IMG/VR virus record: IMGVR_UViG_3300005512_000299
Span: 1-25,314 of that record
DNA length: 25,314 nucleotides
Strand: one strand, 5' to 3'
Origin: a virus
Lineage: Duplodnaviria; Caudoviricetes
Part shown: positions 5,983 to 24,125 of the stretch, one piece after another
Position numbering within the stretch: the stretch's first letter is position 1
How the letters are laid out: every line of letters begins with the position of its first letter
Position numbers and translations under genes: made by a program
Notes under the pieces: generated by a model
What the model was told of the DNA's origin: nothing
Database searches by the model: none
Seen by the model: the letters and a program-made list of their open reading frames with translations, nothing else

Positions 5983-6627
5983 ATGAAAAAGGTACTTTTA
6001 ACCGTTCTTTTGGCTGCCCTTGCGGTTTCAGCAGGCAGAGCCCCCTCCCGCCCAGCGTACAACACGCGGCATTTTTACGATACGCTGTATGTTGCATCGA
6101 CAGCAGATACATTCTCCCAGGTCTTTTGGCAGGATGCGGGAATGGAAAAAACCCTGCTGATTGAGATGAATGATACATCGGTTGCTGGGTTTGATTCCGA
6201 TTCGTGTGCTTTCAAGCTGGAGCTTTATCAGGCATGGCAGACACAACCAGAGTCAACAATTATACTTCTACCCTCACGTGCAAACCCTGATTCTACCGGC
6301 TGGCCGTATTCAAGTGATTTTGTTCTGTTTGACTCCCTCGATATTGCTGATATGGACACCGTTTCAACTTACCGCAGGGTTGCAATTCCATCAACAGACC
6401 TTTCAGGGGATACCACTGGCTACTATTACAAGACGGGTATTGATACCCTCATAAGCGTTTCAGCACAGATTGCGGCATTTGCTTATGTTCCGATAGCCCC
6501 CGATGCTTCTGCTGGTGTGGCGGTAAAGATTACCGGGAAAGCTTCAAACAAGAAGGGTGCCGGTTCAAGGATTATACTTAAGTGGTTTCAGGTCAAAGGT
6601 CAACCCGTTGATGTGGTTGGGAAATAG
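5983..6627 (+). CDS. secreted protein with Sec signal peptide, D-(S/T)-rich
   Basis: MKKVLLTVLLAALAVSA|G and an AGGAG RBS. It has 10 D-S/T dipeptides, 6 of which match D[ST][AILVMT]. Confidence 0.8.
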   Translation: MKKVLLTVLLAALAVSAGRAPSRPAYNTRHFYDTLYVASTADTFSQVFWQDAGMEKTLLIEMNDTSVAGFDSDSCAFKLELYQAWQTQPESTIILLPSRANPDSTGWPYSSDFVLFDSLDIADMDTVSTYRRVAIPSTDLSGDTTGYYYKTGIDTLISVSAQIAAFAYVPIAPDASAGVAVKITGKASNKKGAGSRIILKWFQVKGQPVDVVGK

Positions 6628-6628
6628 C

Positions 6629-7231
6629 ATGAAAAACCTGCTTTTGATAGTTCTGGTGCTTATCGGGTCTGCTTGGGCCCGTTCTCCGTATTCTCCGAGG
6701 GGTGGCAGGGCATACGGGCAAGACCAGTACACCAACGCCATGATAACGATTGATTATGAGCACCACGAGATACACGAGGGGGCGCATTTCTTTATCTGTG
6801 ACACCATAACGCTTGGTTCAGGTGATTCTGTTATGTTTGCCATGAAAACCGATGCAGGGCCGAAGGAAGTTCACCTTGCGTGGGACATTTTTGGCTCTAA
6901 AGGCATTTTTCTTGAGATATTTGAGGGTGCCGGTATAACTTGGGACGGGGCAAACGCAACGATAAGGAACAACGACCGCAACAGCGCCACGGTTTCAACG
7001 GTTGATTCTTTACAGGCTGACCCGACGGTTGTGTCATTGGGAACCAGGATACAGGTTGACATTGGCGGTACGGCCACAAACCCTGCAAGCGGGATACCTG
7101 GGGTTGCATCAAGAAACCGTGAGTTGATACTAAAAAAGGGCACTGTTTACCTGTTCACAATAACTTCACAGGCTGCGAGCAACATTATTGGGTATTGTGG
7201 GCAGTGGTACGAACCGACACCAAAAGATTAA
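6629..7231 (+). CDS. secreted beta-rich protein with Sec signal peptide (putative virion structural protein)
   Basis: The likely start is ATG 6629: MKNLLLIVLVLIGSAWA|R. It has an HHEIHEG motif, alternating beta-strand pattern, and sequons DTI, DSV and DSL. Confidence 0.78.
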   Translation: MKNLLLIVLVLIGSAWARSPYSPRGGRAYGQDQYTNAMITIDYEHHEIHEGAHFFICDTITLGSGDSVMFAMKTDAGPKEVHLAWDIFGSKGIFLEIFEGAGITWDGANATIRNNDRNSATVSTVDSLQADPTVVSLGTRIQVDIGGTATNPASGIPGVASRNRELILKKGTVYLFTITSQAASNIIGYCGQWYEPTPKD

Positions 7232-9384: not shown

Positions 9385-9739
9385 GCTTTACAGCCTGTTT
9401 TTCCCTGTTAAAAGGGGGCTTGGGGCGGCAAAGACACGTATTGAGAAGTGCTGTCGGGTTGCTGATTGGCTAAGTGGTGGGATGAAGTTTCATTTCAACT
9501 ACTTTTTCTTTCACGACATTGGGGAATATGACTTTGCTGCTGGGGTTGAGTTGGAAAAATGGGAAAGAAAGACCGTTTTTCATATGAAACACCACCCAGA
9601 CAGGAAATTAGAGCTTGTTTTAAGGAAGATTGTGTTTGAATCTCTTGAATGGGCGGTGTTGAAGCGTGCGGATTTGGGCATTAATTCAAAAATTGATATT
9701 TATTACGACAAAAACCTTGACTTTTCGGTGAAAAGATGA
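9362..9739 (+). CDS. hypothetical protein
   Basis: 125 aa ORF with ATGA overlap into the Com-like gene; start uncertain. Confidence 0.55.
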   Translation: MLAARLTRLYSLFFPVKRGLGAAKTRIEKCCRVADWLSGGMKFHFNYFFFHDIGEYDFAAGVELEKWERKTVFHMKHHPDRKLELVLRKIVFESLEWAVLKRADLGINSKIDIYYDKNLDFSVKR

Positions 9740-9924
9740 AAGATATACGTTGCCCGATATGTAATGCTCTTTGGTTCAGGGCAGATGGAAAGTTTAAGGT
9801 GAATATTCGTTGCCGGAAGTGTGGGCATGATTTCACAAAAAAGTTTGACACGGGTGGGAGTGTAATAAAGGGAGTGCAAACGGGGAGTGTAAAAGATGCC
9901 CAGTTGATGCACATTAGAGTGTAA
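9736..9924 (+). CDS. Mu Com-like zinc-ribbon regulator
   Basis: MKDIRCPICNALWFRADGKFKVNIRCRKCG fits the IRCxxCxxLL...IxCxxC pattern of the Com family. It lies before the head genes. Confidence 0.7.
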   Translation: MKDIRCPICNALWFRADGKFKVNIRCRKCGHDFTKKFDTGGSVIKGVQTGSVKDAQLMHIRV

Positions 9925-11149: not shown

Positions 11150-12376
11150 ATGGCAATTACAAGCGCATCAAAGAGCTATGCCAACGCCAATTCGACTGAA
11201 GAGAACGTGAAGAAAGATGTATCTTCCGTCCTTTGGCACGTTGGCGAACCGACCTCCTATCCGCTTCACACTCTTCTTGGTGGAAAACTGTACATTCAGG
11301 GACAGTCCAAACCTCAGGAAGTCGCGGGTAAGGTCAAGAAAGAAACCACAAAACAGCCGGAATACAAGGTCATCGAAAAAGACCCTCTGGCCCGTACCGT
11401 TACGACAAACGGTGCAGTTGCAAGCACTTCCACCACCACGGTGACTCTTGACGCCAACGCAAATCTGCGTGTTGGTGACATGATTAAAAACCGCGAAAGT
11501 GGCGAAGTGTGTTATGTCAGTGCCGTTGATTCTGGTGGTGCTGCTATTACCGTGAGGAGAAATCTCGGCTCGACCAGTTTTAAGGTTGCAGATAATTCGA
11601 CATGGTACATTATGGGTTGCGCGTTCGCAGAAGGTACTGCAAAAGCCTCACAGAAGGCCCAGCTTGCCGCCCCTCGGACACGTTATCTCCAAATTTTCAA
11701 ACGGACTTTCGGTGTTACCGGAACTCTGGATGAATCAAAGTTGGAAACCGAAGACATTGATAGCTGGACTGAAGAAATGACTCAGGCCGCCGTCAATCAC
11801 CGTCTTGACATCGAAAATAGCTGGTGGTTCAATCCCAACGCTGATTCGACCACGGACGCCTCTTCAAACACGGTTTACATTTCACGCGGTATTCTGAACG
11901 AAATCGGCTCGACTTACACGACCAATTACGAAGCCTCGATTGATGAGGATTTCTTTTTTGGTGAGTTTGCCGAAAACGCTTTTGAGTACGGCCCACGGCG
12001 GAAGCAGCTTTTTGTTGACGCTGAGATGATGACCGTGATCGGTTCTTTTGGCCGGACGAAACTCCAGACCAAGAGCACCGACACCAAGTTTGGCTTCAAA
12101 ATGCAGGAAATCGAAACTGGCCACGGCATGTTCGAGATGGTCATGTGCGGCACGTTTGACAAGCACCTTCCGAATGCCCAGAAGGGTATCGCGGTTGTGC
12201 TTGATGTTGAGCGCGTTTGCTACAAAAACCTCCCCAATCGTGACTCGAAGATGGAGATGGATATTCAGACTCCGGGAACCGATGCACGGGAAGGCCAGTT
12301 TGTCACGGAGTGCGGTTTGAGCCTTCGGTCTCTGCCTCACCACCACATTCTCAAAAAGTCTTCACTGACCATCTAA
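11150..12376 (+). CDS. major capsid protein (HK97 fold, SU10/DUF5309-like)
   Basis: 408 aa after the scaffold. It has AFAEG...RYLQIFKRTFGVTGT, HRLDIE, RGIL and C-terminal EGQFVTECGL...HHIL segments typical of this capsid family. Confidence 0.85.
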   Translation: MAITSASKSYANANSTEENVKKDVSSVLWHVGEPTSYPLHTLLGGKLYIQGQSKPQEVAGKVKKETTKQPEYKVIEKDPLARTVTTNGAVASTSTTTVTLDANANLRVGDMIKNRESGEVCYVSAVDSGGAAITVRRNLGSTSFKVADNSTWYIMGCAFAEGTAKASQKAQLAAPRTRYLQIFKRTFGVTGTLDESKLETEDIDSWTEEMTQAAVNHRLDIENSWWFNPNADSTTDASSNTVYISRGILNEIGSTYTTNYEASIDEDFFFGEFAENAFEYGPRRKQLFVDAEMMTVIGSFGRTKLQTKSTDTKFGFKMQEIETGHGMFEMVMCGTFDKHLPNAQKGIAVVLDVERVCYKNLPNRDSKMEMDIQTPGTDAREGQFVTECGLSLRSLPHHHILKKSSLTI

Positions 12377-12391
12377 CACAAGGAGCATAAG

Positions 12392-12910
12392 ATGAAAGCA
12401 GTAAAAATTCTCAGTGCGCTTCTGGTTGTGGCTGGTCTGACTCAGGCGGCAGTAACTGTTGGAAGTGCTGGTAACAACACACGCGGCGTCACGGCGGCAA
12501 ATGTTCGGATTATCGAACTGACCGACGCTGACACCTCGGATGCTGGTGACACTATCAGTGCTGATGCGGTTTCTATTTATGGCCCCTATAAGGTGGCTGA
12601 CGAATACACCGCAGCGCAGTATAAGTCTTTCTCTGTTTATGCACAGGGTGGGCTGATTGCTTCCGGTGACTCCATCGAGATTAGCTATCAGTTGATTTCT
12701 GGAACAAGTCTTGCGGATACAACCGCAACTTGGACGGTTATTGACACGGTTGCGACAGGTGGAAAAGCCTTGGCAAATGTGGACATTTCGGCAAAACCCG
12801 CACGGTCTATCATATTCCGTATTCTGAATATTGACAGTACCCGTGTTGAGATTACCGATTTTATCCGCGTATGTTTTCTGAAGTCAGAAACCTACAACAA
12901 GAATGACTAA
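12392..12910 (+). CDS. secreted protein with Sec signal peptide at the capsid decoration-gene position
   Basis: MKAVKILSALLVVAGLTQA|A and an AAGGAG RBS, located between the capsid gene and a hairpin. Sequons DTI, DSI, DTT, DTV and DST. Confidence 0.8.
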   Translation: MKAVKILSALLVVAGLTQAAVTVGSAGNNTRGVTAANVRIIELTDADTSDAGDTISADAVSIYGPYKVADEYTAAQYKSFSVYAQGGLIASGDSIEISYQLISGTSLADTTATWTVIDTVATGGKALANVDISAKPARSIIFRILNIDSTRVEITDFIRVCFLKSETYNKND

Positions 12911-12940
12911 GAGGAAGGGGGCTTCGGCCCCCCTCCCTTT
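12911..12940 (+). terminator. GC-rich cUUCGg hairpin, probable terminator of the capsid transcript
   Basis: GGGGGC-TTCG-GCCCCC with extended flanking pairing and only a short TTT tail. Confidence 0.65.
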
Positions 12941-12951
12941 GGAGGTATAAG

Positions 12952-13266
12952 ATGCCCAAGAAAAGAGTAAAAGAGGTTAAAAAGCCCACCACTGTCTCTG
13001 GAACTGCGAAGGGTGCACATTCTGGTAATACTGTTGATGTTGATGAGTACAGAAACCAGATAGCCCGCGAGTATGCACCGGAGCCGGTAAAGCCCAAGAA
13101 TGAGGCAAAAACGTTTGTGGGTGCCGGAACGTACTTGCTGACCGCCCCAGACGGAGAAAAGCAGTCTTTTAAGTGGTCAACAGACAACAATTTTAAGGTT
13201 TTGGTTACTGACCCCAAGTGGATTGCAGTGCTTGAGGAAAAAGGCTTTAAAGAGCTGGAGAAATAA
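12952..13266 (+). CDS. hypothetical protein
   Basis: 104 aa with a GGAGG RBS. Confidence 0.7.
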   Translation: MPKKRVKEVKKPTTVSGTAKGAHSGNTVDVDEYRNQIAREYAPEPVKPKNEAKTFVGAGTYLLTAPDGEKQSFKWSTDNNFKVLVTDPKWIAVLEEKGFKELEK

Positions 13267-13898: not shown

Positions 13899-15745
13899 GC
13901 AAAGGCGGGATGACAAAGCGTGTGTATTCAAAGTTTATGTCCGTTAATGGCGGCGTAGACCAATACCACGACCCTATTAAATTGGCTAATAATAAATGCC
14001 AATCAATGTCTAATTTGTTTATTGACGGGGGAGATGTCACGCTAATGCCCGGAAGAGAGCTTTGGGGGCCGGTGTTCAATGAGCCATTTAGGGGGGTTCA
14101 CGAGTACATTGACTCTGCTGGTGTCTCGAGGCTTTTGGTTGCAAGTGATGGAAATTTGTACGAGGTAGACTCAACGACAAAGACCAGCCGGGACACGGTA
14201 ACAGATGAGCGGCTGCACTTTCACACGTTAAGGGATAAGTGTTTTTACAATGGTTCAACCACCCAAAGAAAACTGGACGGAACTACTAGCTCTGCTGTGG
14301 GCCTTGATGGGCCTGATACTGCTCCAACTCTTGCGGCAGGCGCAGCAGGGGTATTGACCGGAAGTTATGCGTATAAGGTCACTTTTGTTATTGAGAGCGG
14401 TGGTATTAGGGTGTATGAAAGCGACCCAAGCGATTCTTCCAACTCGGTGACACTTTCAAGCGACAAGGGCTCTTTGACAGATGTTCCTGTAAGCACGGAT
14501 GCGAGGGTGAATGCTCGATATATTTACCGGACGTTTGTGGGTGGTGCAAAGTGGTACTATGCCGGGAAAATCTCTGACAACACGACAACGACATACACCG
14601 ACAACCTTGCAGATGCTTCTTTGGGTGATGAGGTAGAAGACACCCACGGTGTACCGACTGCGGCTGAGTTCTCAGAGGGTGCAAACGAAAGGCTTTTCTG
14701 GCTCGATGATGATAAACTGTACTACTCTGAGGTTGCAAGAACTGATGCCTATTTGGAGTATTCAAAGATACTTGCTGGTGTGTCTGTAAGGTTTTTGACT
14801 CTTCCGAACAACGGTAAGGGTAAGGGGTTAAAGAGGCTTTATAACTCAGAGACCGGAAGAGATGATTTGTACGTGTTCGGGGAAGAGTCTATCAACATTC
14901 TTCCGCAGGGAGACCCAAACTTCCAGCTCCAGACCGTCAGAAGGAATGTTGGGCTAAAGCAACAGGACACGATTGTTGAATGGAACCAGAGTCTTGTGTT
15001 TCTGACAAACAAAGAGAGTGTTGGGCTGGTATCTGGCGGGAAATACGTAGACATTGCAGAAAGGTCTATACCTGAGACGTTAAAGGCGGCGTTTAATCAG
15101 GGAGAATACTCGGCAACGCTTTTGAGAGACAATTATTATGCTTTAAGTATACAAAACAATGCCGGAAAGCTATATGGAAATCAAACTTGGCTTTGTGACC
15201 TGAGAACCGCAAGAGAGGTGAGAAACAACCAGGCTGATGCAACGTGGTTTGCATGGGATGTGGATGCTCAGTATTTCATTGAAAGAGAAAACGGGGATAT
15301 ACTTGGATTTGACAACAATGCACGGCAGATATACAGGTATAGGTTTGATTTAACCAAGTTTGCTAATCAGGACGGTTCTAAGAGCAATATTTCATGGTCA
15401 ATGCGAACTAAAGACCATTTTGGTGACTCTTTGTATGTTCGGAAACAGGTTCACAATGTTTCGATTAAAGGGAAGTTTCAGAGAACTTTTTATGTGACCC
15501 CATACGCTGGAACTGGAAATGCGCAGAGCAATGTCGAATATAACCCGATTAAAACTGCATTTGTTGCAGGTACTAGTGTCATGGGTACACCGACAACGGA
15601 ATTTAAAGTATCGACAGAAGGGCAGTTCCCGGCGTCAACGGTTGGTAATACATTCTCGTTTAAGTTCTTTGGGTCTAACGAGGACGCATTTTTTACTTTT
15701 ACGGGCTATCAATTCATCTACATGGCATTTATGAGGGGATTATGA
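13895..15745 (+). CDS. putative tail nozzle / DNA stabilisation protein (tail tubular B or P22 gp10-like)
   Basis: 616 aa beta-propeller-like pattern with N-terminal NGGVD, plus an inserted Ig/FN3-like segment (APTLAAG..YAYKVTFV..ESDPS..RYIYRT..TYTDN). Confidence 0.65.
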   Translation: MSKGGMTKRVYSKFMSVNGGVDQYHDPIKLANNKCQSMSNLFIDGGDVTLMPGRELWGPVFNEPFRGVHEYIDSAGVSRLLVASDGNLYEVDSTTKTSRDTVTDERLHFHTLRDKCFYNGSTTQRKLDGTTSSAVGLDGPDTAPTLAAGAAGVLTGSYAYKVTFVIESGGIRVYESDPSDSSNSVTLSSDKGSLTDVPVSTDARVNARYIYRTFVGGAKWYYAGKISDNTTTTYTDNLADASLGDEVEDTHGVPTAAEFSEGANERLFWLDDDKLYYSEVARTDAYLEYSKILAGVSVRFLTLPNNGKGKGLKRLYNSETGRDDLYVFGEESINILPQGDPNFQLQTVRRNVGLKQQDTIVEWNQSLVFLTNKESVGLVSGGKYVDIAERSIPETLKAAFNQGEYSATLLRDNYYALSIQNNAGKLYGNQTWLCDLRTAREVRNNQADATWFAWDVDAQYFIERENGDILGFDNNARQIYRYRFDLTKFANQDGSKSNISWSMRTKDHFGDSLYVRKQVHNVSIKGKFQRTFYVTPYAGTGNAQSNVEYNPIKTAFVAGTSVMGTPTTEFKVSTEGQFPASTVGNTFSFKFFGSNEDAFFTFTGYQFIYMAFMRGL

Positions 15746-17280
15746 GAAGTCTTTTAATTAGTCTAATGCTTGCGGCTTCTGTTTTGGGTGCCGGTGGTGA
15801 CACGCTTGTCTTTGACTCAACGTACATCAATTTTGCAGACGGGGATACGTTTTTTGTTGACCAGAACTACAAACCCCCACATGACTCGGTACAGGCTATT
15901 ATTAATGGCCGGTTGGGTGATGTGAACCTTGCCACGGATGCTGAGATAGACGCTTCCAAGATTGACACCACAAGCATTTTAACCGTGCAGAAGGCCGCAA
16001 TAGACACTATAACTCGGTGTGATTCTGCCAAAATAGACACGGTTGAGCTTGTAAAAATTAAGGGCAACCCGGACGTTGACAGCCTTGCCGGGAATATTGT
16101 TATTGATAGTCTTTCGGGAAACCCCACAATTGACTCTGCATCTATTGGCTATTGTGACATCGGGGGTGATTTTCTTTTTGCCGGTGGGACGCAGGATTAT
16201 TTGGTGACTTACGAGGGGGCAAAAAGCCTTGCCATCCAAAGCCAAACAATAAACACAGACTTTCAGATTGAATTTTTTCCGTATGGGCCGTCGGGGACAG
16301 CAGACGGCACTGACGACAACAGGCTGATATTTTATGGCGTGGGTTCACCTTCCGACATCACAGACAGAGAGCGCTTGACGGTATCATACGAGAGCGGAAA
16401 TACAGATTTTGAGATTTACACCGAAGCAGCCGGCACTGGCACACTCAGGCCACTTGTACTATACACCGAAGGCAATGCCAACCAATTACACCTTGCAACC
16501 GATGGAAGTGTTGGAATAGGAACAGCAACAACGAACGGATATCCGCTTCGCGTTGCCTCTGGAAATATTGTTCTTGACAACACGCGCGGGGTGCTTGCGT
16601 ATAATGCAGCTGGAAACGCCGTGAATGGCGGTTTTCAGTATACCGGAACCGACGACCTTCAACTGTGGGCTGGTGGTCAGTATAGGGTAACTGTTGACAA
16701 GTTGGGGTTTGTTGGAATAAACGAGCCATCACCATCCAAAATGCTAGACGTTGACGGCTCGATTAACGTTACAGACACCATTTTTGCTGGAACCTACGAT
16801 TTTAGCGGCTCAGATATTACTTTGGACACGCTTGTAGCCTCAAGGGTTCGGGCTGATTCAATTATAGGCGTTGATTACATTGACTCTGTTTCTTTTGGTG
16901 ATGAGCCTTTGAAGGTTTATGATGAGGGTTCATTTACTGGAACGCTTCAGGGTTGTGCAACAGCCCCAACGATTTCTATTAAATACACAATAATAGGCAA
17001 CATTGCAACTTTGTATTATCCGAGCACAATAGCAGCTTCTGACTCTGCTGGGTTCGCTATTACAGGTCTACCTGCTGCACTACAGCCAACGGGGGCGGCT
17101 ATATACAATGCGGTAATAGCTTATGATAACGGTGGTCAGGTTGGGGCGTTTGCCCTGCTTTCAAACGGTTCTGGCTCAATACGCTTTTTGATTGGCTGTG
17201 ACTCGCCAAACGTTTCGGGTTGGACGACAAGCGGAAACAAGGGCGTTGACGGTGGCGCGATAACATACGGGTTAGATTAA
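15742..17280 (+). CDS. tail fibre-like protein carrying an N-terminal Sec signal peptide
   Basis: MRSLLISLMLAASVLG|A. Fibre-type motifs GSVGIGT and GFVGINEPSPSKMLDVDG, and C-terminal YDEGSFTGTL...YTIIGNIATL. 15 D[ST][AILVMT] sites. Confidence 0.7.
   Translation: MRSLLISLMLAASVLGAGGDTLVFDSTYINFADGDTFFVDQNYKPPHDSVQAIINGRLGDVNLATDAEIDASKIDTTSILTVQKAAIDTITRCDSAKIDTVELVKIKGNPDVDSLAGNIVIDSLSGNPTIDSASIGYCDIGGDFLFAGGTQDYLVTYEGAKSLAIQSQTINTDFQIEFFPYGPSGTADGTDDNRLIFYGVGSPSDITDRERLTVSYESGNTDFEIYTEAAGTGTLRPLVLYTEGNANQLHLATDGSVGIGTATTNGYPLRVASGNIVLDNTRGVLAYNAAGNAVNGGFQYTGTDDLQLWAGGQYRVTVDKLGFVGINEPSPSKMLDVDGSINVTDTIFAGTYDFSGSDITLDTLVASRVRADSIIGVDYIDSVSFGDEPLKVYDEGSFTGTLQGCATAPTISIKYTIIGNIATLYYPSTIAASDSAGFAITGLPAALQPTGAAIYNAVIAYDNGGQVGAFALLSNGSGSIRFLIGCDSPNVSGWTTSGNKGVDGGAITYGLD
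16060..16140 (+). repeat. three tandem 9-aa repeats in the tail fibre
   Basis: KGNPDVDSL / AGNIVIDSL / SGNPTIDSA, each ending in a D-S-(L/A) sequon. Confidence 0.7.
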
Positions 17281-21047: not shown

Positions 21048-22586
21048 ATGCCAGTAACAAAAAACATAGACGGCAGACGGGTAACGTTTCAAAGCGACCC
21101 GACCCCAGAAGACATACAGGCCGCAAGAGACCAAATATCCAAAATGGGGCAACAGGGCGAGGAAAAACCTTCCCTTATGTCTCAGCTTGGCGAGAGGGGA
21201 ACAAGGATAAAAGAGGCCGTTACTGGTGGCGGGGACTTCGAGCAAAAAACAGACAGCCCCATAGACAAGGCGGGTGAGGTTGTTGAGCGTGGCCTTGAGG
21301 TTACGGGGCAGATTGGTGGAGCTGTTGGAGATGTTGTTGGCGCAGGGCTTAAAAAGGGTGGAGAGGCCATTTCTGCACTTACGCCTGAGTTTATCAAGAA
21401 GAGCGACAACCCGCTTATATCAACCTCTGCGGCGTTTGAGAAGATTGGCAACATAAAGACCCCTGAAGGCTCGACAATTTCAGAGGCTCTTGCTGAGACC
21501 GCCCAATTTGCCAGTAAGGCATGGAACCAACTTGATGACCGCGAAAAGCGCATTTTAACAAATATAGCAAACACCCTTGACGTTCTTCCTGCCTCTGCTT
21601 TTGGCGCTAAAGCTGGCGGAGAAGCACTTGAGAAGGCCGGAACCAAGGCCGTGAGTGGCGCGCTAAAGGTGACCAACAAACAGGCAAGACAGGCCGGAAA
21701 GACCCTTATAGAGGGTATAGAGAAGATAAGCGACGATGTTGCACGCCTTGGCGTACAATCCCCTACTGGTGGGTTTCAGGGCATATCTGACAACGCTGTG
21801 AAAAAGATTTCAACACTCCGCAACCAAGCGGATGACATGGTTGCAAAGGCTGTTGCAAAAAGTCCGGGGAAAACCGTTGACTTGGAAGATGTTTTCTCTT
21901 CTTATATAGACGAAATCCAGCGCGGTGACATTCACGGGGTGTTCTTGGGCAAACAGCGGGAATCGGCATCTGAGCTTGCAAGTAATATCCTTGAGGCGCT
22001 TGAAAACAAGGGCTTTGTTGGAGAAATACCAATTGAAAGGCTCCCTGAACTCAAGAGAACCCTAAACGAGGGGCTTGACCTCTTTGCACAGGGCAACCTG
22101 AACATTGCAGACGAGAAGATTGCCAAGAGAATAGGTGACATTGCTTATTTAAAACTTGCAGACAGGCTAAACGAGGCCGTTCCTGGTCTGAAGAACATCA
22201 ACAGGGATATACACGACCTTATTGTTCTCAGAGACGCAATGGACGAGGGCGCTGCTAGATATGCCAAAAACAAGCAGATTAATGCCTTTGACCTCCTTAT
22301 GATAGGTGGTGGAATTGCGGGTGGTGCTCCTGCCGGCAGCGTTCCCGTGTCTCTGTCTGGTGTCGGCCTTGTTGGCGCAAGAAAGGCTCTTGGTGGTGGT
22401 CGTGGGCCATCTATGGCAATATCTGCTGGTAAGGCTGCTCAACAGGTGCCGGACGTTTCTGCGTTGGCAGGTTTAACCGGCCTTGGTGCGCAGCAGGGAC
22501 AAAGACAACTTGGAACAACCGTAACGGTGCCAGAAGAGGAAAGACGGCGCGTAGAGTCTCTTTCGGGGCTTAAACTAAGGCGATGA
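21048..22586 (+). CDS. putative ejection / DNA transfer protein
   Basis: 512 aa A/G/K-rich helical protein with Gly-rich hydrophobic segments. Confidence 0.6.
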   Translation: MPVTKNIDGRRVTFQSDPTPEDIQAARDQISKMGQQGEEKPSLMSQLGERGTRIKEAVTGGGDFEQKTDSPIDKAGEVVERGLEVTGQIGGAVGDVVGAGLKKGGEAISALTPEFIKKSDNPLISTSAAFEKIGNIKTPEGSTISEALAETAQFASKAWNQLDDREKRILTNIANTLDVLPASAFGAKAGGEALEKAGTKAVSGALKVTNKQARQAGKTLIEGIEKISDDVARLGVQSPTGGFQGISDNAVKKISTLRNQADDMVAKAVAKSPGKTVDLEDVFSSYIDEIQRGDIHGVFLGKQRESASELASNILEALENKGFVGEIPIERLPELKRTLNEGLDLFAQGNLNIADEKIAKRIGDIAYLKLADRLNEAVPGLKNINRDIHDLIVLRDAMDEGAARYAKNKQINAFDLLMIGGGIAGGAPAGSVPVSLSGVGLVGARKALGGGRGPSMAISAGKAAQQVPDVSALAGLTGLGAQQGQRQLGTTVTVPEEERRRVESLSGLKLRR

Positions 22587-23020
22587 GAAGCCAATTTGTA
22601 AACAAGGCATTTGAGTGCATAGGGCTACCGTATATCTGGGGTGGTAATACTCCGCATATAGGGTTTGACTGTTCGGGGTTTGTATGTCATTGTCTCAGGT
22701 CAACGCCAAAATACTCAAAGATACCTGATTTGTCGGCTCAAGGTTTGGCAGACTTTTTCCACCGGGAAAAGACGCTGATTACCCGCCCCGGTGTGCTGTA
22801 CTTTTATGGGGACTCTTGTGATAACATAAATCATGTAATGGCAGTATTGAGGATGTGGGGCGCTGGGGGTTCATTAATTGGGGCAAGGGGTGGAAACAGC
22901 CAGACCAAGACGGCTTCAGATGCAATGAGGGACAGGGCAATGGTTGACGTAGTTACTCTGGATTACTGGAAGTCAAAGCTATTGTTTATGCGCGACCCGT
23001 GGAGAACTGATGAAAGCTGA
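22583..23020 (+). CDS. NlpC/P60 family cysteine peptidase (candidate endolysin)
   Basis: IGLPYIWGG...GFDCSGFV with the catalytic Cys and a downstream His (INHV). Confidence 0.88.
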   Translation: MRSQFVNKAFECIGLPYIWGGNTPHIGFDCSGFVCHCLRSTPKYSKIPDLSAQGLADFFHREKTLITRPGVLYFYGDSCDNINHVMAVLRMWGAGGSLIGARGGNSQTKTASDAMRDRAMVDVVTLDYWKSKLLFMRDPWRTDES

Positions 23021-23456: not shown

Positions 23457-23643
23457 GTTTATGAAATGGTTTGACGGGAAAAAAACAGCGCTGGCCTCTG
23501 CATACTGGCTTTTTACCATGCAGATACTTCCGGTGTGGTTTCCTAACGGAACCCCCGAAGACATAAATAAGGCGTTAATAACCCTGGGTGCCGTTTTAAC
23601 ATACATCGGGCTGGGACATAAAGCCATGAAGGGAATGAAATGA
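23449..23643 (+). CDS. putative holin
   Basis: 64 aa from ATG 23449: WFDGKKT, two hydrophobic segments, and GLGHK with a basic tail. Confidence 0.6.
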   Translation: MSKFMKWFDGKKTALASAYWLFTMQILPVWFPNGTPEDINKALITLGAVLTYIGLGHKAMKGMK

Positions 23644-24125
23644 AACGGATATTGGTTATAGTAACATGTGGGATGTTATTGTTTGGGTGCTCTAAAAAGG
23701 TTATAAAGGGGATAGACTCACTAGACAAGAAAATGGAAGATGTAATTGTGGGAAATCACCCGAAACCGGTAATATTTCCCGATGCAGATTTCGCCAGTGC
23801 TATTGAGGAGATACGCTCGGTGGTGGTGTATTTCGACCTTGATTCTGATGAAATACAGCCTATGTCTGTGGCTCTTCTTGAAGGGTTTTTGGAAGAGAAC
23901 CACGGAAAGGCAATGGTCTTTGAGGGCCACGCCTGCCCGCTGGGTGAGGATGGGTACAATGCAGACCTTTCCAGGAGACGCGCTGAAAGGGCCAGAAACA
24001 GCATTATAGGCGCAATTGATAAATGGGGTAGCTCTATAGTGGCTTATGGAGAAAGCAAGCCTGTGACGCTTAATGGGGCCGAATACGCAAAAAACAGACG
24101 GGTTGAAATAAAAATAAAGGACTGA
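23640..24125 (+). CDS. OmpA/Pal-like peptidoglycan-binding lipoprotein
   Basis: Lipobox LLFG|C; OmpA C-terminal domain motifs VYFDLDS, EGHAC..G...YN..LS.RRA, YGESKP and NRRVEI. Confidence 0.88.
   Translation: MKRILVIVTCGMLLFGCSKKVIKGIDSLDKKMEDVIVGNHPKPVIFPDADFASAIEEIRSVVVYFDLDSDEIQPMSVALLEGFLEENHGKAMVFEGHACPLGEDGYNADLSRRRAERARNSIIGAIDKWGSSIVAYGESKPVTLNGAEYAKNRRVEIKIKD

Follow-up and report, generated by a model that had tools for sequence, protein, structure and literature searches.

A leader-bearing, sequon-rich, predicted jelly-roll protein encoded beside the capsid gene of a podophage clade: a candidate exported and host-glycosylated capsid decoration

The phage record and its head module

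The stretch of DNA analysed, hereafter the window, is a whole virus record of 25,314 nt, linear and 65% complete according to CheckV. Its virion module is of the podophage type, with genes for a terminase, an SU10-type portal, a scaffold (assigned by position), an SU10-type major capsid protein (MCP), an adaptor and a head-closure/nozzle protein. Further genes encode a fibre-slot protein, likely ejection proteins, an NlpC/P60 protein (22583-23020) and an OmpA-family lipoprotein. A Com-like zinc-ribbon translational regulator (phrog_13819, E 3e-5) lies between the portal and scaffold genes at 9736-9924. The MCP (11150..12376, + strand) is a leaderless protein of the SU10/DUF5309 type (PF17236, E 8.8e-27; phrog_1328, major head), with the capsid of Vibrio phage VP1 (9in6, E 2e-22) as its nearest solved chain. 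The cultured phages matched by the MCP were four in number, at an identity of only 24-28%.

The gene under study, here called X (12392-12910, + strand), encodes a protein of 172 aa and begins with an ATG 15 nt after the MCP stop, preceded at a distance of 6 nt by the Shine-Dalgarno sequence AAGGAG (12380..12385, + strand), both as described in an earlier note on this DNA. The product is predicted to consist of a Sec/signal peptidase I leader of approximately residues 1-20 (12392..12451, + strand), with probable cleavage after Ala19 or Ala20, and a mature part (12452..12910, + strand) modelled as a single jelly roll, in which the D-S/T sites at D53, D93, D109 and D118 and a YGPY / YQ / W114 set are conserved. 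Folding placed a cUUCGg hairpin with a short U tail at 12913..12940 (+ strand), followed by the ribosome-binding site of the next gene (stem core at 12917-12932; folding energy of the surrounding sequence -24.9 kcal/mol, z -2.1). A canonical intrinsic terminator was rejected here, given a tail of only CUUU and a terminator scan that made no call, and the hairpin is likely a leaky terminator or an mRNA 3' guard.

Synteny and expression of X

Synteny was drawn from MCP-first locus searches, from which 14 distinct relatives were kept and six duplicates and the distant locus L022 were dropped; a locus search starting from X returned no loci. X was directly 3' of the MCP gene in 13 of the 14, across 36-58% MCP identity. 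The exception was L021, in which the X slot was empty and the order was MCP, hairpin and a gene of the family found at 12952 in the window (L021:471-857, E 2e-11); this contig is short and X could lie elsewhere. The fetched stretches of the four cultured MCP-matched phages yielded no X homologue, and neither the genes after MCP nor the fibre genes of these phages encoded a leader. X is thus best regarded as accessory, and the earlier generalization that this slot usually holds a cement or decoration protein is not universal. The genes that follow related capsid genes had been proposed as a check on the signal peptide; the leader was present in 13/13 X proteins. A partial linkage check compared the 30 X clusters with the MCP matches: nine had a longest record equal in nucleotides to a record with an MCP match, and none exceeded 40,918 nt. 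In the dropped locus L022, the gene after the distant capsid gene (388-1212) encodes a 274-aa leader-bearing protein with one sequon only and no X-profile match. An apparent inserted beta domain was seen at approximately residues 85-160 of the window MCP, a region either left out of the matches to Pfam and PHROG or bridged by them in stretched form, and this domain may be a built-in cement that makes X dispensable.

X had been expected to be co-expressed with the capsid gene on the strength of its spacing, its ribosome-binding site and the hairpin behind it. A strong stem-loop was found at most 60 nt 3' of X in 11/13 folded loci, with a weak one in L013 and none in L009 or L012. A stem-loop was also found between MCP and X in four relatives (L003, L009 and L013 by folding, L018 by eye), so the case that the hairpin makes for co-expression is less strong than claimed. 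The hairpin indicates that the late operon steps down at this point, and 1:1 co-expression does not follow from it. Codon use was compared as well: the synonymous codon use of X was closer to that of MCP than was any other gene's in 5/11 loci and ranked second in two (permutation p 3e-5), with ranks of 5-8, mid to last, in the remaining 4/11. As a proxy, codon use is consistent with high expression of X.

The X family and its leader

A full HMMER scan returned 130 proteins at E <=0.001, X included. The alignment held 121 sequences after nine fragments or long spurious matches were left out, and the full-length set comprised 118 Met-start proteins of 140-200 aa. The family has few links to anything named. 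A word-index protein search returned X itself only, the X profile recovered three proteins, and mature X had no match among 50,697 cultured-phage records. The window protein had no Pfam match, the 121 members gave only five single-member weak matches to PHROGs, and the best E value in a PDB profile search was 0.43; no sequence link to any virion protein in Pfam, PHROG or PDB was found. The Atlas clusters nearest to X by features were 94-98% viral and unnamed, and one JGI record labels an X homologue 'type 1 fimbria pilin'. Homologues were located in phage head modules, rather than mainly in non-phage loci as would be expected were X unrelated to phage structure.

The signal peptide proposed earlier was upheld, with an N-terminal hydrophobic leader in 114/118 full-length homologues. 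X itself has an N-terminus that contains two Lys and a hydrophobic stretch (11-residue Kyte-Doolittle maximum 2.77), with Ala at positions 19 and 20. Among the 121 aligned homologues, 117 had an h-region and 114 a basic n-region, with one lipobox and no Tat motif, and Ala occupied alignment columns 19 and 20 in 94/121 and 73/121, respectively. The family thereby shows the features of signal peptidase I substrates, namely a basic n-region, a short h-region, small residues at -3/-1 and no lipobox or Tat motif, the -1 count being partly circular as the cleavage rule used favoured Ala. No leaderless X homologue was found, and the four members of low hydrophobicity look like cases of start codons called inside the leader. 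The mean hydropathy over 19 residues was >=1.6 in 110/121 homologues, a value that by itself is also compatible with a membrane anchor. Column identity was lower in the leader than in the core (0.20 vs 0.28), and the leader was of low confidence in the AlphaFold model, which is not what would be expected of a hydrophobic segment retained as a structural element. Overall, the segment looks like a Sec leader that is cleaved; judged from these sequence features, export of X is near certain and its cleavage by signal peptidase I very highly probable. There was no clear Cys co-occurrence indicative of disulfide pairing in the family (best p 0.03, uncorrected).

Conserved D-S/T sequons

X contains six D-S/T dipeptides, at residues 47, 53, 93, 109, 118 and 148. 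As first noticed, five of the six match the strict motif D-[ST]-[AILVMT], against 1.3 expected (p=0.006, 5000 shuffles), a p-value that overstates the excess because leaderless slots of these phages reach observed/expected (O/E) ratios of 0.5-2.1. The excess held across the family, with 408 strict sequons vs 103 expected in 118 proteins. The family O/E of 3.6-4.0, vs 0.5-2.1 in leaderless slots, is as expected for a Bacteroidota-type sequon, whereas the control motifs E-S/T, S/T-D and N-x-S/T had O/E values of 0.9-1.1. N-glycosylation was rejected on the basis of an N-x-S/T O/E of 1.08.

The sites at D53, D109, D118 and D93 are among the most conserved features of the family, with S or T following in 119, 115, 102 and 75 of the 121 homologues, respectively. 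The extended Bacteroidota O-glycosylation motif is given as D(S/T)(A/I/L/M/T/V/S/C/G/F) in the available part of PMC10897501, and the third residue fell within this motif in 97-100% of cases at the four sites. D was almost never replaced by E or N, and the conserved D131 and D148 were mostly without a following S/T. Next to residue 93, S/T was present in 75/75 sequences with D93 and in 28/46 with D replaced, a comparison between related rows for which any p-value is inflated. T was kept after loss of D in 26/46 at residue 94 and in 12 at residue 119, and the motif is therefore in part structural. Searches for GT1 and GT2 glycosyltransferase families gave no match in four records (one complete), so any glycan on X would be host-made. 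Taken together, glycosylation of X is likely, and attachment of the glycan by an FCB-type system for general O-glycosylation is quite probable.

Distribution of leaders and sequons across phage proteins

Over the 14 loci, leaders were found on X (13/13), on the fibre-slot protein (6/6) and on the family of the gene at 5983 in the window (9/10, the tenth being a miscalled start). None was found on the terminase (9), portal (11), scaffold (11), MCP (14), adaptor (14) or nozzle (12), nor on the ejection slots. Sequon O/E followed the same division, at 3.6 for X, 4.44 for the fibre slot and 5.95 for the 5983 family, vs 0.5-2.1 in leaderless slots, the beta-rich ones among these reaching 1.8-2.1. 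This joint restriction of leader and sequon across different proteins is, at the level of sequence, the strongest argument in the case for the sequon.

The 5983 family was present in all relatives covering the terminase-portal interval. Its window member (5983..6627, + strand) is a leader-bearing protein of 214 aa with six strict sequons vs 1.4 expected. HHalign comparison with the X family gave a probability of 46.7 (E 2e-4), and the two share Atlas neighbours, which makes paralogy with X a weakly supported possibility. The adjoining gene (6629..7231, + strand) encodes a leader-bearing protein in which 3/3 D-S/T dipeptides are strict and the mature part resembles phrog_5335, of unknown function. 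Both genes sit between the terminase and portal genes.

The tail-fibre-slot protein (15742..17280, + strand), named by position only, bears a leader and 15 strict sequons vs 3.6 expected. The fibre slot as a whole had 81 sequons vs 18 expected, with no detected similarity to X. The N-terminal domain is conserved and its GDT/GDT/DS sites are invariant; the C-terminal part varies among relatives, as does total length (263-599 aa). No sequence match to known fibres was found for the fibre-slot protein, its N-terminus included; the equivalent slot in Roseobacter phage CRP-810 is annotated 'tail fiber' and is leaderless. Variable leader-bearing proteins with 6-18 sequons were also observed just 5' of the portal gene (L012:2795-4162; L008:4269-5240; L002:3732-4877; L014:4664-6171). 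Those scanned had no Pfam or PHROG match, and they are candidate head fibres.

Predicted fold of X

The single-sequence fold of X was poor (pLDDT 38) and was replaced by an alignment-based AlphaFold (AF2) model with a pLDDT of 89.9. This model has a beta-sandwich core in the form of a single jelly roll, with the leader and an arm at low confidence, and bears out the earlier prediction of a beta-rich mature region. Comparison with 48,161 chains gave XepA residues 34-142 as the best structural match (Z 11.5, rmsd 2.5, 107 aligned), which led the second-ranked row by 2.3 Z. Subsequent matches were Eph domains, plant-virus coat proteins and then three capsid accessory chains, namely the cements 7dou of KHP40 (Z 7.9), 7eel_H of Pam1 (7.2) and 8h89_J of GP4 (7.0). 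These cement scores, all below 8, were tied with those of carbohydrate-binding modules, TNF-like lectins and Eph domains, and Foldseek searches of PDB and BFVD returned generic jelly rolls only. The modelled fold is therefore compatible with a cement, without being diagnostic. BPP-1 Bbp16 and epsilon15 gp10 were outside the direct fold comparison, so that their absence among the matches excludes nothing. When the MCP was co-folded with mature X in three copies, the score was 0.00 vs a mark of 0.32, an outcome that gives no answer and is evidence in neither direction.

Comparison with known systems

Literature comparisons drew on the available portions of PMC11969387, PMC10897501, PMC6834076, PMC5837995, PMC3863775, PMC12582341 and PMC11256854. 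The jelly-roll cements (BPP-1 Bbp16, KHP40 7dou, Pam1 7eel_H and GP4 8h89_J) are like X in being small single jelly rolls encoded by a gene adjoining the MCP gene, and an Atlas cluster containing Bbp16 was a weak lead for X (score 0.83). According to PMC3863775, Bbp16 is an essential protein that is not cleaved and whose model starts at Met1. X differs from cements of this type in its leader and conserved sequons, in the lack of a sequence match and in a slot that is empty in one relative. Thus X has the jelly roll in its model, the position beside the MCP and, by the codon proxy, a similar level, but neither a cement-family profile match nor the leaderless, uncleaved N-terminus. In fold, slot and level it is like a capsid decoration of the jelly-roll type; it belongs to no named cement family, and is set apart by its leader and O-glycosylation motifs.

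XepA and YomS of the Bacillus elements PBSX and SPbeta provide the best structural match, with a beta-sandwich of the XepA type. XepA is described as a two-domain pentamer of the lytic cassette, absent from the mature phage and inactive as an isolated N-domain, and its authors suggest capsid vertex binding (PMC6834076, in part). X differs from this protein of a Gram-positive host's lytic cassette in being single-domain, in having a Sec-type leader and in its location in the head operon.

The substrates of Bacteroidota-type O-glycosylation are likewise exported and carry D(S/T)X motifs, with a third-residue spectrum that X matches; those described in the sources consulted are periplasmic, membrane or surface proteins of the host, whereas X is a phage late protein with a probable FCB-relative host. 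A sugar coat on a tailed-phage capsid is known from mycobacteriophages Che8 and Rita, in which the MCP itself is modified and the phages carry glycosyltransferase genes (cited second-hand in the available part of PMC11256854). In the X clade, by contrast, the MCP is leaderless and no GT1/GT2 match was found in the four records.

For Cellulophaga phage phi18:3, GenBank notes for the part fetched mark 12 structural proteins as identified by MS/MS, of which three (gp085-087) have leader-like N-termini. By analogy these may be a precedent for leaders on particle proteins, or could instead have been co-purified. They are like X in being leader-bearing proteins of a podophage of an FCB host with an MS/MS structural annotation, and unlike it in their length (547-785 aa), a Gln after the leader and the lack of an X-profile match. 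Their sequons showed no excess (one each vs 2.9-3.7 expected). The literature searched yielded no account of tailed-phage virion proteins that are exported and glycosylated by the host, subscription literature being mostly outside that search.

Proposed role of X and alternatives

Tailed-phage particles are held to be completed in the cytoplasm. T4 Hoc/Soc, lambda gpD and the P22 tailspike can join particles that are already finished, also in vitro. These proteins are made in the cytoplasm, with no known leader or glycan and with folds unlike X, but their binding to finished particles makes addition of X after lysis plausible. The reading that we favour, by a modest balance of probability, is that X is a dispensable, high-copy capsid decoration that is exported, O-glycosylated by a host of the FCB type and added at lysis. 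X would be made in large amounts alongside the capsid gene and pass through Sec to the periplasm, where signal peptidase I would cleave the leader and the host would O-glycosylate the protein at D-S/T sites. Lysis would open the inner membrane and mix the compartments, allowing mature X to bind the outside of finished capsids. The gain would be a host-like glycan coat on the virion without a phage glycosyltransferase. Export and late addition are favoured because procapsid, packaging and ejection parts never carry leaders, while parts that could be added last nearly always do, and because late binding has precedent. The high-copy, exported, late-added decoration of the earlier note is borne out as regards its export signal, sequons, high expression with the capsid gene (by the codon proxy), phage context and cement-compatible jelly roll; binding to the capsid after lysis is itself only fairly probable.

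X might instead be exported and likely glycosylated yet never enter the virion, acting as a periplasmic or released late sugar- or receptor-binder or as an envelope protein expressed by a lysogen. Roles of this kind would include masking receptors, such that progeny avoid re-adsorbing to debris, and superinfection exclusion. The scores of carbohydrate-binding modules and lectins, as high as those of cements, would suit such a protein, as would the integrase of one relative, the hairpins that can separate X from MCP and the empty slot in L021. Nonetheless, the place of X is fixed after MCP in 13/14 relatives across the range of MCP identity above, its codon use is MCP-like, and the one complete genome gave no integrase match. 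The fibre slot also bears the same signature, with no leaderless fibre-like gene seen there instead, and a role outside the virion is considered rather unlikely. The top structural match raises a related option, an oligomer like XepA/YomS that acts on the envelope at lysis or egress with transient capsid contact. It would suit such a lysis helper that XepA is a lytic-cassette pentamer absent from the mature phage (PMC6834076, in part) and that no endolysin family was matched among the proteins scanned from the complete genome (G002, 39,315 nt). However, X is a head-module gene some 10 kb from the NlpC/P60 and OmpA-lipoprotein genes of the window, it had no Pfam XepA match, and it is a single domain, the isolated N-domain of XepA being inactive according to the same source. 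We consider this improbable.

The remaining alternatives concern the motifs and the leader. The D-S/T sites could be structural, as strand caps or a metal site, in an exported but unglycosylated decoration, which the persistence of T without D at two sites and the O/E of up to 1.8-2.1 in leaderless beta-rich slots would fit. Such a requirement would not readily account for the same excess (81 vs 18) in a fibre-slot protein that was not detectably similar to X, for the near absence of E or N in place of D, or for conserved D131 and D148 that mostly lack a following S/T. Equally, the leader is hydrophobic enough to span a membrane and could be an uncleaved anchor, against which stand the Ala columns that follow a short h-region. 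That either of these holds is thought highly unlikely.

For the clade as a whole, decoration with X at lysis would form part of a virion built in two compartments, with the core assembled in the cytoplasm and the decoration, its possible paralogue and the tail fibre exported, glycosylated and attached at or after lysis, a scheme for which we judge the evidence evenly balanced. There is likewise an even chance that the X family marks an undescribed extracytoplasmic maturation step. An export signal and host glycosylation motifs on a capsid-slot protein imply a last assembly step outside the cytoplasm, and host enzymes are a possible route to glycosylated virions. The rule suggested by the data is that leaders occur only on parts that can be added last. 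If true, phage proteins with signal peptides are being wrongly left out of virion annotations, and the virion would be host-camouflaged by a maturation route undescribed for tailed phages. The four conserved sites provide exact targets for mass spectrometry.

Host and lifestyle of the clade

The D-S/T motif, as a sequence feature, points to a host in the FCB group. Gln near the cleavage site was found in only 13/121 X homologues, compared with an average of 71% of Bacteroidetes exported proteins, a proteome average (PMC5837995, in part), which makes a typical member of the Bacteroidota an improbable host. A non-Bacteroidota FCB lineage, e.g. Fibrobacterota, is our guess. No report of D-S/T glycosylation systems outside the Bacteroidota was found in the literature consulted. 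A pattern search for the MCP found nothing in GTDB, a search of metagenome-assembled genomes (MAGs) gave one unrelated match, with 0/61 genomes of that MAG's phylum positive, and DnaB and OmpA searches gave no informative matches.

An OmpA-family lipoprotein was found near the lysis region in this clade, and an OmpA-family gene in Roseobacter phage CRP-810 (window 23640-24125; L038:2026-2544; L031:10909-11406; L023:934-1689), the window protein having few sequons (one strict). In the complete genome G002, a 460-aa ORF at L038:3439-4821 had neither a Pfam nor a PHROG match. One relative (G066) encodes a tyrosine integrase (L040:466-1575) and has an early region of the lambda type. Temperate members thus exist in the clade, and their prophages could reveal the host.
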